Counted from the first letter of the stretch, positions 7,220 through 11,114 are shown. The stretch is DNA of 64,000 nucleotides from Coraliomargarita sp. (GCA_965216325.1 OZ244160.1:288001-352000), one strand, 5' to 3'. Notes: generated by a model not told the origin, from the letters alone. Numbers and translations are program-made.

Positions 7220-7258
7220 ACAAGTCAGATTGCCTTCACTCTGAGTTAAGAGTTGTTC
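7220..7258 (-). pseudogene. Recoded relic 2 of the nrdJ 3' end (EQLLTQSEGNLTC)
   Basis: 7220-7252 gives 11/11 aa identical to nrdJ 8307-8339 but only 21/33 nt identical. Confidence 0.8.
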
Positions 7259-7352
7259 CCTTGCTGCCCAGAGGGCACCCGCTCGGTCACCCTTCGCTAT
7301 GCTCAGGGCAAACCTGCGGTTTACCATCTACGCGCTGCCGCGCTCCGTCAAA

Positions 7353-7397
7353 CTGCTGCTCATCGAGTTTGGGTGCCTCCTTTTCGATGGTGGTGGC
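7353..7397 (-). pseudogene. Recoded relic 1 of the nrdJ 3' end (ATTIEKEAPKLDEQQ)
   Basis: 12/15 aa identical to nrdJ 8346-8390; all 15 third codon positions differ (25/45 nt). Confidence 0.85.
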
Positions 7398-7423
7398 AGA
7401 TGAATGGTGAAGAGTGAATTGTG

Positions 7424-7473
7424 CTCCGAGAAGCGAAGCGACGACATGGCCGGATGCGACGCAGACCGGATCA
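7424..7473. repeat. Left arm of a 50-bp imperfect inverted repeat flanking the TA module
   Basis: 33/50 ungapped identity to the reverse complement of 8147-8196; shared CCGG-nnGC-nnn-GCnn-CCGG hairpin. Confidence 0.7.
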
Positions 7474-7505
7474 GTGTGAGATTCCATTGAAACGTTTCCT
7501 TGGCG

Positions 7506-7796
7506 CTACAATCGATTCTTCCAGTAATTGGGCGCTCGTTTGGCGTGTGCGATCGCGACGACGTAGATTGTGTTCCTTCGTATGTGGTAGGCGATATAGA
7601 ATGGGAAGACGCGGCAGTTGACACGGCGGTAGCACTTGCCACGTAAGCGAGGGAGTGTCGGATGCTGGCGGATGAGCTGCACGCTGCGCTGAATCTCGTC
7701 CTTAAATCGGATGCCGAGCTCTGTCTCGATTTCTTCGTATTCGGTGAAGGCTTCCCAGAATTCAGTTTCAGCCTCTCTGAGAATCTGAACCTGCAT
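7506..7796 (-). CDS. RelE/ParE-family toxin
   Basis: 96 aa; AETEFWEAF...LGIRF...RRVNCRVFPFYIAY...VAIAHAKRAPNYW pattern. Confidence 0.88.
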   Translation of the reverse strand: MQVQILREAETEFWEAFTEYEEIETELGIRFKDEIQRSVQLIRQHPTLPRLRGKCYRRVNCRVFPFYIAYHIRRNTIYVVAIAHAKRAPNYWKNRL

Positions 7797-7806
7797 CGCT
7801 CAAGAA

Positions 7807-8028
7807 CTAGGCACTGCGTTGGTCGGCCTCCGCGAAGACTTCGTCAATTGAACGAAACTCGGCATGGCCATTTTCAAGTTTGGCGATCCGGCTGGCGATT
7901 TCCTGTTCCCATGCGCTGTCGATCGCGTCGTCGGACAGGCTGTTGAAGAGACGACTGGCCAAGCGCTCGCGGTCTTTGGCCGAGAGTCGCAGGGCGCGAG
8001 CTTCGATCTCTTTGAGTTCGGAAGGCAT
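7807..8028 (-). CDS. Addiction-module antitoxin
   Basis: 73 aa; LSAKDRERLA...AWEQEIASR pattern; directly upstream of the ParE-like toxin. Confidence 0.85.
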   Translation of the reverse strand: MPSELKEIEARALRLSAKDRERLASRLFNSLSDDAIDSAWEQEIASRIAKLENGHAEFRSIDEVFAEADQRSA

Positions 8029-8146
8029 GTTTCTAAGGTAGGTGTGCGGGTGTGAAATGCAAATTGAATTTTACCGCAGAGGGCTGGAGAAGAGTGAAGT
8101 TTGAATGGTGAAGTGTGAAATCTCCATTAATTCATCCTCCGTGCCT

Positions 8147-8196
8147 TGGTCCGGTTCGCACTGCGACCGGTCTTGTCGTTGCAGTGCTCCTTGGAA
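8147..8196. repeat. Right arm of the inverted repeat flanking the TA module
   Basis: Pairs with 7424-7473. Confidence 0.7.
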
Positions 8197-8222
8197 GTGG
8201 CCCGTCTTGGTTATCCGTCCAT

Positions 8223-11114
8223 TTAGCTACATCCGAGGCTGGTTCCACAGTTTAAGCAGCAAGCACAAGTTCCTGTGACCTTTACTTTGCCGCTGCCACA
8301 TTCGGGACATGTTAAGTTTCCTTCAGATTGGGTTAGTAACTCGAGTTGTTCTTCGTCCAACTTCGGAGTTTCGCGCTCAATCGTCGTTGCATTCGGATTC
8401 TTATCTTCGAACGAATCGTCATACTGAGCAGCGGGGCTCATCTTTTCTTTGTAGCCGGGGATGAACTCCATGCCGAGTTCGCGGGCGACATAATCGATGA
8501 CCGACTTAGCGAATGGGATGTGCGGGTTCTTGGTCATGCCCTCGGGTTCGAAGCGAACGTGGCTGAACTTTTTGACCAGGGTCTCGAGCGGCACGCCGTA
8601 TTGGAGGCAGAGGGAGACGAGGGTGCCCACGCAGTCCATGAGGCCGTTGATGGTGGAGCCGGCCTTGGCCATCTGAATGAACACTTCGCCGGGCTTACCG
8701 TCGTCGAATTTGCCAATGGTAATATAGCCTTCCGACCCGCCGATGCTGAATTTGTGCGTGAGGGACTCGCGGGTGTCGGGGAGCTTGCGGCGGAAGGGCT
8801 CGGTGGTGATTTGCACCTGTGGCTGTTCGTCCTTCGGCTCGTCCTTGGTGGTCTTGATCGGCGCGGAGCGCTTGGAGCCGTCGCGGTAAATGGCGATGCC
8901 TTTGATGCCTTTCTTCCAGGCGTGAATGTAGGTCTCGCGGATCTCTTGGATGCTGGCTTCCTGTGGCATGTTGACCGTTTTGGAAATTGCTCCGGAGAGG
9001 AAGGGCTGCACGGCCGACATCATGTTGATGTGGTCGGTGTAGTGCAGGTAGCGCTGGCCCATGCCGGACTTGAAGGCGGAATCGAACACGGGCACGTGTT
9101 CTTCTTTGAGGCCGGACTGTATTTGGTTTCCGGATACGGAGATGTTTTCGACGGTGCCGTATTCTTTAACGTGGGCGCAGACCTGGTCGATGGCTGCCTG
9201 ATCGTAGCCCATGGTTTCCATCGCGAGGGGGATGGACTTGATGGGGATGGTCATCAGGCCACCGCCGGCAAGGGTCTTGTAAGCGACGAGGCCGATGGCG
9301 GGTTCGACGCCGGTGGTGTCGCAGTCCATGAGGAAGCCGATGGTGCCAGTGGGCGCGAGCACGGTGACCTGGGCGTTGCGGTAGCCGTAGCGCTTGCCGA
9401 GGTCGGCGGCTTCTTTCCATGCTTTGGCTGCGAATTCGGCGAGTGCTTTGGGCGAGTTGGAGTCGAGGGCTTCGGCGTGGCTCTTGTGCAGGTCGATCAC
9501 GGCCTGCATGGAGGCGATGTTGTCCTTTTCCGGTGGGTTGGGCACCCCGAAGTGCGCGGCTTCGTGGTAGCCGGGGAAGGCGCCTTTGAGGGCGGCGAGC
9601 TCGGCGGAGGTCTTGTAGGCGACACCGGTCATGGCGGCGGTGATGGCTTTGGCGAGGCCGAGTCCTTCGTCGGAGGCGTAGGCGTAGCCGTAGGACATGA
9701 GCAGGGCGCCGAGGTTGGCGTAGCCGAGGCCGAGGGTGCGGAACCAGTGGCTGTTGTAGGTGATGCCTTCGGTGGGGTAGGAGGAGCGGTCGACGATGAT
9801 TTCCTGCGCGATGATAAAGATCTTGGCGGCGGCGGCGAAGCGCTCGGCGTCGAGCCCCTCGGGCGTGCGGAACTTCATGAGGTTCAGCGAGGCGAGGTTG
9901 CAGGCGGAGTTGTCGAGGAAGAGGTATTCGCTGCAGGGGTTGGTGCAGTTTTGGCGGCCGGAGCCTTTGCAGGTGTGCCACTTGTGGATGGTGTCGTCGA
10001 ACTGCATGCCGGGGTCGCCACAGATGTGGGTGCCCTCGGAGATTTTATCGAGCAGGTAGGAGGCGTCTTTTTCTTCGCAAGGTTCGCCATCGGTCACGCG
10101 CTTAGTGTAAAATTTGCGGCCTTCGACGGCGGCATTCATGAAGGTGTCGCTGGCGCGGATGGAGAGGTTTTCGTTCTGGTATTTGATGGAGCCGTAGGCG
10201 TCGCCGTTGAAGGAGGGATCGTAGCCTTCTTCGATGAGGGCCCAGGCCTTGCGCTCTTCGATGGTTTTGGCGGCGATGAATTCTTCGATGTCGGGGTGCC
10301 AGTCTTTGAGCACGTTCATCTTGGCGGCGCGGCGGGTTTTGCCACCGCTCTTCACGACACCGGCCACGGCATCGTAAACGGAGAGGAAGGAGAGTGGGCC
10401 GGAAGGACGGCCGCCGCCGGAGAGTTTCTCGCGGGTGGAGCGGATGCTGGAGAGGTCGGTGCCGGAGCCGGAGCCGAATTTGAACAGCATGGCCTCGGCC
10501 TTAGCCAGATCCATGATGGAGTCCATGTCGTCGTCGACGTGCTGGATGAAGCAGGCGGAGCATTGCGGGAACTCGTATTGGCTGTTGGCGCGCATGACGA
10601 CCTCGTGGTCCTGATCCCAGTAGTAGTTGCCCTTGCAGGAATCTTTGCCGACGCCGTAGGCGTGGTAGAGGCCGAGGTTGAACCAGACGGGGGAGTTGAA
10701 GGCGCCGTATTGGTTGACGAGCAGCCAGGTGAGCTCTTCGCCGAAGACTTTGGCTTGGGCTTCGTCGGCGAAGTAGCCGTCGGTCAGACCCCAATCGGTG
10801 ATGGTGCCCGCGACGCGGTCGACGACTTGCTTGAAGGAAGATTCGCGACCGCCGGTGTGTGGGTCGGTGCCGTGGTCGATGTCGCCGTAAAAATACTTGG
10901 AGGAGAGAATCTTGGTGGCGAGGTCGGAGAAGGCTTCGGGGACCTCGATGTTCTCCTGTTTGAAGATGGCTTGGCCCTTGTCGTCGGTGATTTCAGCGGT
11001 GCGGTAGGTCCAGGTGATTTCGTCGTAGGGGTGGGTGGTGTCGGAGGAAAAGGCGCGCTCGATGCTAAGGCTGTGCGGGGTAGTGGCTTCGGTGTTTTTG
11101 GAGTCGTCTCTCAT
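8223..11114 (-). CDS. nrdJ: Class II (B12-dependent) ribonucleotide reductase with TSCPD domain and Zn ribbon
   Basis: FNSPVWFN, QCSACFI, TNPCSEY, APTGTI, ISKTVN, C-terminal CxxC...CxxC-GCS. Confidence 0.95.
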   Translation of the reverse strand: MRDDSKNTEATTPHSLSIERAFSSDTTHPYDEITWTYRTAEITDDKGQAIFKQENIEVPEAFSDLATKILSSKYFYGDIDHGTDPHTGGRESSFKQVVDRVAGTITDWGLTDGYFADEAQAKVFGEELTWLLVNQYGAFNSPVWFNLGLYHAYGVGKDSCKGNYYWDQDHEVVMRANSQYEFPQCSACFIQHVDDDMDSIMDLAKAEAMLFKFGSGSGTDLSSIRSTREKLSGGGRPSGPLSFLSVYDAVAGVVKSGGKTRRAAKMNVLKDWHPDIEEFIAAKTIEERKAWALIEEGYDPSFNGDAYGSIKYQNENLSIRASDTFMNAAVEGRKFYTKRVTDGEPCEEKDASYLLDKISEGTHICGDPGMQFDDTIHKWHTCKGSGRQNCTNPCSEYLFLDNSACNLASLNLMKFRTPEGLDAERFAAAAKIFIIAQEIIVDRSSYPTEGITYNSHWFRTLGLGYANLGALLMSYGYAYASDEGLGLAKAITAAMTGVAYKTSAELAALKGAFPGYHEAAHFGVPNPPEKDNIASMQAVIDLHKSHAEALDSNSPKALAEFAAKAWKEAADLGKRYGYRNAQVTVLAPTGTIGFLMDCDTTGVEPAIGLVAYKTLAGGGLMTIPIKSIPLAMETMGYDQAAIDQVCAHVKEYGTVENISVSGNQIQSGLKEEHVPVFDSAFKSGMGQRYLHYTDHINMMSAVQPFLSGAISKTVNMPQEASIQEIRETYIHAWKKGIKGIAIYRDGSKRSAPIKTTKDEPKDEQPQVQITTEPFRRKLPDTRESLTHKFSIGGSEGYITIGKFDDGKPGEVFIQMAKAGSTINGLMDCVGTLVSLCLQYGVPLETLVKKFSHVRFEPEGMTKNPHIPFAKSVIDYVARELGMEFIPGYKEKMSPAAQYDDSFEDKNPNATTIERETPKLDEEQLELLTQSEGNLTCPECGSGKVKVTGTCACCLNCGTSLGCS

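Follow-up and report, generated by a model that had tools for sequence, protein, structure and literature searches.

Prophages e14 and phage 21, which insert at icd, supply a substitute 3' end for their target gene; they encode an integrase and have one fixed core. Rickettsia palindromic elements are repeat elements inserted into coding sequence. Here we describe nrdJ, the gene of a class II ribonucleotide reductase, in a 64,000-nucleotide (nt) stretch of Coraliomargarita sp. DNA (GCA_965216325.1, OZ244160.1:288001-352000), hereafter the window. Downstream of this gene, beyond a toxin-antitoxin (TA) cassette, lie two pieces of a second nrdJ 3' end (the relic), separated by a spacer. We consider it probable, at about 0.75, that the nrdJ tail has been displaced repeatedly by incoming homologous DNA with cargo, which recombined in the conserved gene body.

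Like the two prophage insertions, the nrdJ locus has a duplicated 3' end, an upstream, element-derived copy that completes the gene, and copies that differ mainly at synonymous sites. Unlike them, it has no recombinase between the copies, the start points of the copies vary, and the cargo measures 1 kb. A preliminary description of this DNA had drawn the parallel with e14 and phage 21; the parallel holds for the outcome only; the unit contains no recombinase. The spacer resembles Rickettsia palindromic elements in being a dispersed hairpin-forming repeat inside codons. It differs from them in that it sits in a silent copy, and a comparison of the spacer peptide of a relative (G012) with longer proteins gave 0 matches to a full-length NrdJ with the insert, which is weak evidence.

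For the rhs genes, the part of Jackson et al. (2009; PMC2935791) used here proposes that C-terminal displacement occurs by homologous recombination with a small circle holding a core fragment, a tip and the intervening genes. As described there, the gene keeps a conserved 5' part and exchanges its 3' end for one gained by lateral transfer; the former tips accumulate downstream in arrays, each attached to a stretch of core whose length varies, and no recombinase takes part. The nrdJ locus is alike in these respects. In contrast to rhs, the target at nrdJ is a housekeeping enzyme gene, and the replaced and the replacing tail differ little in the peptide that they encode (11/11 and 12/15 amino acids [aa] identical), so that nothing is diversified.

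A second likeness is with the effector-immunity arrays of type VI secretion systems (T6SS). According to the part of Kirchberger et al. (2017; PMC5361080) used here, an incoming module gains its foothold in a conserved upstream stretch, what used to lie downstream is retained in a shifted position, and arrays grow as such events follow one another. These arrays spread between strains by ordinary homologous recombination, as described in that part of the paper, and a near-identical tract at 7873-8540 is comparable. The retained part at nrdJ, unlike that of the T6SS arrays, is a useless gene tail and not a selectable immunity gene, and the target is nrdJ. Unlike in rhs, contact-dependent inhibition and T6SS systems, the passenger at nrdJ is a type II TA pair or other small cargo, not a toxin tip with an immunity gene.

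The resident nrdJ tail and the relic downstream

The Cys-rich tail of another class II enzyme binds zinc and shuttles electrons to the active site, as reported in the part of Loderer et al. (PMC5704485) used here. In the genome under study (G000), the G+C content of third codon positions (GC3) was about 0.85 in the nrdJ body and 0.3 to 0.5 in the last ~65 codons. When G000 was compared with its relatives G316, G002 and G013, nt identity was 86 to 100% in the last three 45-nt windows of the body and dropped to 62 to 66% from about position 8429 onward. The same windows were 93/88% identical between G316 and G002 and 84/82% between G013 and G316, with a range of 77 to 93% among those three genomes. 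In blastn comparisons with relatives, nt identity was 85 to 91% over 8418-8800 and only 73 to 78% over 8223-8417. The best nt match of the resident tail was a relic in G012 (84% over 114 nt); a piece of the G002 relic also matched it (84% over 67 nt), and the divergence of the resident tail was of the size generally seen between genera.

The second, partial tail lies 826 nt downstream of nrdJ, whose resident tail gives a full-length NrdJ. The relic 1 peptide ATTIEKEAPKLDEQQ agrees with the resident ATTIERETPKLDEEQ at 12/15 aa, while the two share 25/45 nt and 0/15 third positions. Relic 2, which encodes LLTQSEGNLTC, agrees with the resident tail at 11/11 aa and 21/33 nt, and 9/11 codons differ, including a TCT/AGT exchange. 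These counts, taken from the preliminary description, were exact on recount. A tblastn search with the last 120 aa of NrdJ found the two pieces at E values of 2e-4 and 0.008. In 1000 dinucleotide-preserving shuffles of 7012-8222, the top score was 26.2 bits, compared with 32.0 and 27.3 bits for the real pieces; since 0/1000 shuffles reached either score, the relic observation was confirmed.

The preliminary description had raised the possibility that the pieces lie closer to other nrdJ alleles than to the resident one, and the identities agreed with this. Relic 1 matched resident or second copies of G002 and G013 at 40-41/45 nt, compared with 25/45 nt for its own resident tail; its identity was 93% with G316, 91% with the resident tail of G002 and 89 to 93% overall with the tails of the closest relatives. 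The best nt match of relic 2 was 25/26 to G014. The relics of G000 and G002 were 92.5% identical across relic 1 and the spacer, and then matched at 20/33 nt exactly from the 3' end of the spacer, that is, over relic 2. At its 5' end, the G000 relic is cut short.

Since the resident tail does not agree with the body of its own gene and relic 1 matches the tails of relatives, the resident tail appears to have come from elsewhere. On these identities, the resident tail is the newcomer and the relic is of the type native to the G000 gene body. The two pieces are best read as the decaying remains of a once complete second nrdJ tail. We propose that the relic became a mosaic through further recombination, the relic 2 allele being different from that of relic 1.

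The pN/pS ratio was 0.04 to 0.24 in 7/7 copy pairs (within G000, G002, G012, G013 and G253, and between G000 and G002). The low ratio in all seven pairs shows that the copies diverged in functional genes, so that no "recoding" is needed. The tail copies thus diverged under purifying selection, each in the working gene of a separate lineage, and were juxtaposed recently.

In-place tandem duplication of the 3' end, with the silent copy slowly diverging, was considered very improbable. Local duplication does occur at this gene, as seen in G253, where a 243-nt tail-plus-hairpin unit has a tandem copy matching at 78/81 nt. A silent copy, however, should gain non-synonymous changes, and for G000 such a duplication is contradicted by the pN/pS values, by relic 1 being nearer to the tails of other genomes than to its neighbour, and by the discordance between the resident tail and its own body.

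It was also proposed in the preliminary description that the relic pieces serve a nucleic-acid-directed system acting on other nrdJ alleles as its guides or targets, with the resident tail recoded to escape them. The pattern of synonymous differences is the one observation in favour of this proposal, and it is explained by lineage divergence, the divergence of the resident tail being of ordinary between-genera size. The pieces are instead leftovers of a full-length second tail, which is intact in environmental variants and in G013, and the spacer is a dispersed repeat. Rfam gave no match in 6900-8500 at E <= 1, and a gathering-threshold scan of the whole window gave nothing near nrdJ. The neighbouring open reading frames (ORFs) held no nuclease, Argonaute, Cas or reverse transcriptase domain, and the repeat search found no array of repeats flanking the pieces. 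No CRISPR lies there. The proposal is not supported, and we regard it as very improbable.

The spacer was described earlier as a 94-nt, hairpin-rich sequence. The gap between the relic pieces is in fact 100 nt; the shorter figure omits six bases read as Glu-Gln before LLTQ. Its predicted RNA fold has a z score of -1.42, and 19/200 shuffles folded as well, so its stability is not unusual. The spacer has matches at four other sites of the G000 genome at E < 1e-3 (best 85% over 86 nt), and these other copies continue into a hairpin resembling repetitive extragenic palindromes (REP). In G012 the spacer measures 147 nt, keeps the reading frame and contains no stop; the insert causes a frameshift in G000 and G002. 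A metagenome scan with a degenerate pattern spanning the spacer/relic junction gave 0 matches. The spacer is a later insertion into the relic and not part of the insertion mechanism.

In the RNA library X17, contigs covered the TA cassette and the resident tail, although contigs are not proof of transcription. No contigs of this run covered 7000-7640, which, these being contigs, is uninformative on transcription of the relic.

Second tails in the environment, in relatives and at other genes

Single contigs from three metagenome studies (runs X5, X6 and X8) span the TA cassette through an intact relic, which shows that the tail-plus-TA unit with an intact second tail occurs in nature. In these variant contigs, 20 other letters replace 7424-7511, with the result that the hairpin repeat is missing, and CTCGAG (Leu-Glu, as in intact tails) stands where G000 has the spacer. 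Relic 2 is followed by codons for PECGSGKVKV, the start of the Zn-ribbon. The earlier report that the final Zn-ribbon piece is missing therefore holds for G000, in which none was found after relic 2 in the downstream stretch searched, and not for the environmental variant. Since the second tail of the variants is uninterrupted, the spacer, the hairpin insertion and the Zn-ribbon loss are later damage in G000.

The variant and G000 differ at 1/498 nt over 7980-8477, within the near-identical tract 7873-8540, and the TA cassette is about 98% identical. Relic 1 differs at 14%, compared with about 4% for the body past 8541 and about 2-3% for the ParE gene. Such uneven identity shows a fresh homologous exchange of the unit between lineages. 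Among the differences listed, those at 7386, 7389 and 7392 turn relic 1 codons 2-4 into resident-tail codons; seven further differences lie in this piece. In study X8, 8082-8217 (hairpin plus C/T-rich repeat) is replaced by 126 other letters, and the flanking resident tail and TA cassette are unchanged.

Displacement recurs in relatives and at other genes of G000. With the last 64 aa of NrdJ as the query against 101 family genomes, a tail match was found in 38, and, as the preliminary description had anticipated, relatives also carried extra tail copies: more than one copy was present in 5/38 (G000, G002, G012, G013 and G253). One further family genome with an extra copy was found by tblastn, and the G334 layout equals that of G012. 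Species-representative loci had more than one copy in 5/55 cases, all of known layouts. No convincing second copy was found in 300 further genomes of the order, and none of the 34 metagenome loci with a tail had a second copy or a spacer (L166 being a frameshifted single gene).

The layouts differ between genomes. In G013 the first tail is followed after 150 nt by a second, complete one, with 44 identical nt at the start and its own terminator, and G002 has a relic from DDSFE onward with the same spacer at the same codon; in neither does an ORF with a domain lie between the copies. In G012 and G334, two spacer-plus-tail units surround a gene for a VapC-type PIN toxin, and an 8-codon micro-relic is also present. 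In G253, the resident tail is followed by a near-identical tandem copy of the 243-nt unit, a diverged copy with a terminator, subtilase and STAS genes, a nearly full tail and an 8-codon micro-relic, which has the same preceding bases as that of G012, in another genus. The arrays thus hold two to five tail copies (G253, the resident tail plus four pieces; G012, two plus the micro-relic; G000, G002 and G013, one each), and the cargo in relatives is a VapC-type PIN gene, subtilase plus STAS, or nothing. The extra copies start at about aa 809, 899/900, 908, 937 and 956. Three left boundaries lie near aa 898-900, namely the start of the G002 relic, the start of the second G013 copy and the switch point of G000. 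Tail segment C was 100% identical at the aa level in 16/21 copies, and every copy encodes the same Cys-rich peptide.

Further observations were made on the tails of relatives. In G253 (L070 1-380, L071 10225-10406), the 243-nt unit consists of the last 27 nrdJ codons and a long inverted repeat, and the contigs break inside the tandem; further unassembled variation is hinted at by the contigs of several other relatives, which end less than 300 nt past the nrdJ stop. G319 and G340 have lost nrdJ and kept an orphan tail. In G340 (L074 9012-9317), an internal deletion fuses aa 4-60 to aa 915-963, and in G319 (L073 8617-8763) only the last 49 codons are left, behind a chemotaxis operon. With no tail match in 63/101 family genomes, nrdJ seems to come and go in the family.

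A genome-wide scan for other downstream tail fragments had been suggested in the preliminary description. Among 2393 crude ORFs of G000, it revealed tail-only duplications behind five more genes, including purL and glmS (Table 1). The second purL copy begins sharply with 23 identical nt, and a DDE transposase fragment lies beyond it. The cargo at 960000-963130 includes PEP-CTERM proteins, and an ORF at 459578-463344 has a PEP-CTERM-like C-terminus (read by eye).

How incoming DNA may displace the tail

In the mechanism that we favour, incoming DNA would carry a homologous, synonymously diverged nrdJ 3' end together with its own downstream sequence and the ParE/antitoxin cassette, and would recombine with its chromosomal counterpart within the nrdJ body. 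At the nt level this body is unusually conserved (85-91% between genera) and would thus provide a ready homology arm. A foreign tail (about 8429 to the stop at 8223) would then complete the gene, the previous one being moved about 1 kb downstream to a place where it is silent. The displaced tail would afterwards receive the repeat insertion (the spacer), lose the Zn-ribbon and become mosaic by more recombination. A similar reading, that cargo with a replacement tail displaces the old tail, possibly repeatedly, had been put forward in the preliminary description and is supported in substance by the discordant tail, the native-type relic, the pN/pS values and the arrays; its further suggestion that the old tail is fragmented during insertion is not, as the fragmentation is later decay that is absent from the variants.

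On the other hand, the locus could be the remnant of a site-specific integrative element with a tyrosine or serine recombinase and an attP carrying a substitute nrdJ 3' end, from which the recombinase and most of the island were deleted and the addictive TA pair was left. Such an element would give the same outcome, in which the upstream copy completes the gene. The three left boundaries near aa 898-900, the identical openings of the G013 copies (44 nt) and the purL copies (23 nt), and the micro-relic shared with its preceding bases by G253 and G012 would fit, and a truncated integrase ORF lies about 7 kb downstream of nrdJ (window 61-525). However, none of the six genomes with extra copies has a recombinase between those copies, the truncated integrase is outside the relic-bounded segment, and no further relic was found beyond it within 30 kb. 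Other events begin at codons 809, 908, 937 and 956, and the boundary between conserved body and variable linker would by itself place homologous crossovers near aa 898. We consider an integrative element unlikely.

The alternatives to be weighed also concern the manner of the join. Homology in the nrdJ body may have anchored linear foreign DNA, the other end of which was joined illegitimately inside the old tail (homology-facilitated illegitimate recombination), a model published for the analogous T6SS effector-immunity arrays (part of PMC5361080). On the left, the switch is indeed diffuse and homologous, within the conserved body; the right junctions differ between cases, and no recombinase is present. 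The identical starts of the G013 and purL copies, however, exceed typical microhomology, and the incoming-type start codons of the variant relic better fit a crossover within the duplicated segment. An illegitimate join was judged improbable, to the same degree as the integrative element.

Within displacement by incoming homologous DNA, the join may have been a single crossover of a circular intermediate with a tail fragment and cargo, by analogy with rhs; we hold this part of the reading tentatively, at rather less than even odds. One crossover would insert such a circle, the new tail would keep the gene working, and the old tail would come to lie behind the cargo. The circle model would account for the variable start points, the missing recombinase and the arrays, and it predicts incoming-type codons at the start of the relic, a pattern of which the variant gives a hint.

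Several points weigh against displacement by incoming homologous DNA. No donor with an F-type tail and the same downstream sequence was found in 101 family genomes, 55 species loci and 34 metagenome loci, and no circular junction was observed. No recombinase lies in the relic-bounded 1 kb of G000. As the tail linker is fast-evolving in all lineages, the "foreign" label of the resident tail would depend on three close relatives (G002, G316 and G013). For the G013 pair and for the purL pair, comparison gave no clear answer as to which copy is native. No boundary motif common to the six G000 tail duplications was found, so the six may not share one mechanism. Finally, the same partial repeat stands at the same codon in the relics of two genera while the flanking alleles differ, which requires extra recombination events. 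The simplest account is one old repeat insertion into a tail that was later passed around and recombined; alternatively, the repeat may prefer this insertion site.

Once installed, the TA pair probably persists since its loss by recombination between the tail copies would be penalised, and decay of the relic probably lowers the risk of such loss further. More generally, small cargo (TA pairs, single genes, a Y1 transposase) might spread without its own recombinase on molecules that bear a housekeeping 3' end (nrdJ, purL or glmS) as a portable homology arm. One crossover would install the cargo, the fresh tail would save the essential gene, and decay of the old tail together with TA addiction would lock the cargo in. 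We offer this generalisation as a doubtful one.

Locus features, cargo and significance

The coordinates of the features are listed in Table 1. The antitoxin gene comes first and is separated from the ParE gene by a 10-nt gap; both domain scores are above the cut-offs, and the two genes are predicted to form a type II pair. They are the only genes between the G000 tail copies. The intergenic stretch from the nrdJ stop to the antitoxin gene is 194 nt, and that from ParE to relic 1 is 108 nt. The hairpin copies at 8141-8196 and, inverted, at 7421-7473 bracket the cassette. Its closest homologue is a pair in G012 (71% aa identity for ParE, homology over 7519-8081), which does not identify a donor: it is found where a contig begins, at an unrelated place, and no piece of nrdJ adjoins it.

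Table 1. Features of the nrdJ locus in the window (numbered from its first letter) and tail duplications at other genes of the same genome.
Feature	Position	Strand	Basis or details
nrdJ, whole gene	8223..11114	-	963 aa; Pfam RNR barrel, class II N-terminal and TSCPD domains
nrdJ body, predicted native part (class II ribonucleotide reductase)	8430..11114	-	Pfam domains, GC3 ~0.85, nt identity to relatives
Resident tail, F-type, putatively xenologous: last ~65 codons and stop; linker and Cys-rich Zn-ribbon	8223..8429	-	GC3, identity drop
REP-like hairpin just 3' of the nrdJ stop	8141..8196	-	At least 15 other genome sites; reverse complement of the 7421-7473 copy
C/T-rich direct repeat, left copy, upstream edge of the TA unit	8076..8126	-	Repeat family D1; 17/18 nt to 7403-7420
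Type II TA cassette including promoter region (predicted)	7506..8081	-	Pfam; homology to G012 pair
Antitoxin, PF09720	7807..8028	-	E 2.4e-10, 40.7 bits
ParE toxin, PF05016	7506..7796	-	E 7.7e-8, 33.2 bits
Cargo right edge: REP-like hairpin (7421-7473, inverted relative to 8141-8196) in the right C/T-rich repeat (7398-7423)	7398..7505	-	Repeat search
Relic 1, putative linker part of displaced tail, type of the closest relatives	7353..7397	-	nt identity; GC3 0.73
Spacer, partial copy of a dispersed repeat inside the relic	7253..7352	-	Genomic copies; CTCGAG in its place in metagenome variants
Relic 2, putative LLTQSEGNLTC piece of displaced tail, other allele than relic 1	7220..7252	-	nt identity
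Remainder, from relic 2 to the convergent sensor kinase gene; without Zn-ribbon remnant	7012..7219	-	No tail match, no other genomic copy
purL (L147)	G000:C1:964978-971141		142 aa at 92%; 434-nt second 3' end, 87% nt; cargo HTH-HipA on the other strand
glmS (L146)	G000:C1:588535-591923		66 aa at 98.5%; 208-nt second 3' end, 96.6% nt; cargo 353-aa Y1_Tnp gene
Three more genes	G000:C1:960000-963130; 431154-435529; 459578-463344		Second tail 1.4-1.8 kb downstream; 88 aa 82%, 188 aa 95%, 43 aa 100%

Features of REP sequences and their associated tyrosine transposases (RAYT) are present in this genome, which has the further hairpin copies listed in Table 1 and Y1 (HUH) transposase-like genes. One Y1_Tnp gene lies 5 kb downstream of nrdJ (window 1856-2770, minus strand) and another beside glmS. 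The former, IS200-like gene has a syntenic counterpart in G013 (L022 5957-6871), equally oriented and 74% identical at the aa level. It appears to be a resident RAYT-type gene, and hairpin repeats are frequent around it.

Other elements were noted in the window. The truncated integrase ORF belongs to a patch of mobile-element debris at window 61-1318 and upstream (G000:C1:286405-289321), which holds an ORF for a DDE transposase, a tyrosine recombinase truncated to 202 aa that retains just its catalytic part (Phage_integrase), and a further ORF in which an RHS-core-like YDxxGR motif was read by eye. Group II intron domains D1-D4 (RF02001, RF01998) lie at 59946-60235 (plus strand) and a 6S RNA gene at 23135-23314 (plus strand); intron-maturase-like C-termini recur elsewhere in the G000 genome.

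Taken together, the nrdJ case is a housekeeping-gene variant of a known displacement process, that of rhs and of e14 at icd, and is explained in outline. Displacement of 3' ends reaches beyond polymorphic toxin genes and prophage attachment sites. For annotation, short, synonymously diverged echoes of a gene tail found downstream should be read as footprints of past recombination, not as regulatory or guide elements. The variants with an intact second tail, the repeat-hit, truncated relic of G000 and the arrays of relatives form a natural series for the origin, spread and fixation of such insertions. If cargo does travel on a portable homology arm, such a tail-armed cassette would be a general route of gene flow, of which rhs tip displacement would be a special case. 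A core metabolic gene can be repeatedly overwritten at its tail without loss of function, gathering small selfish cargo.

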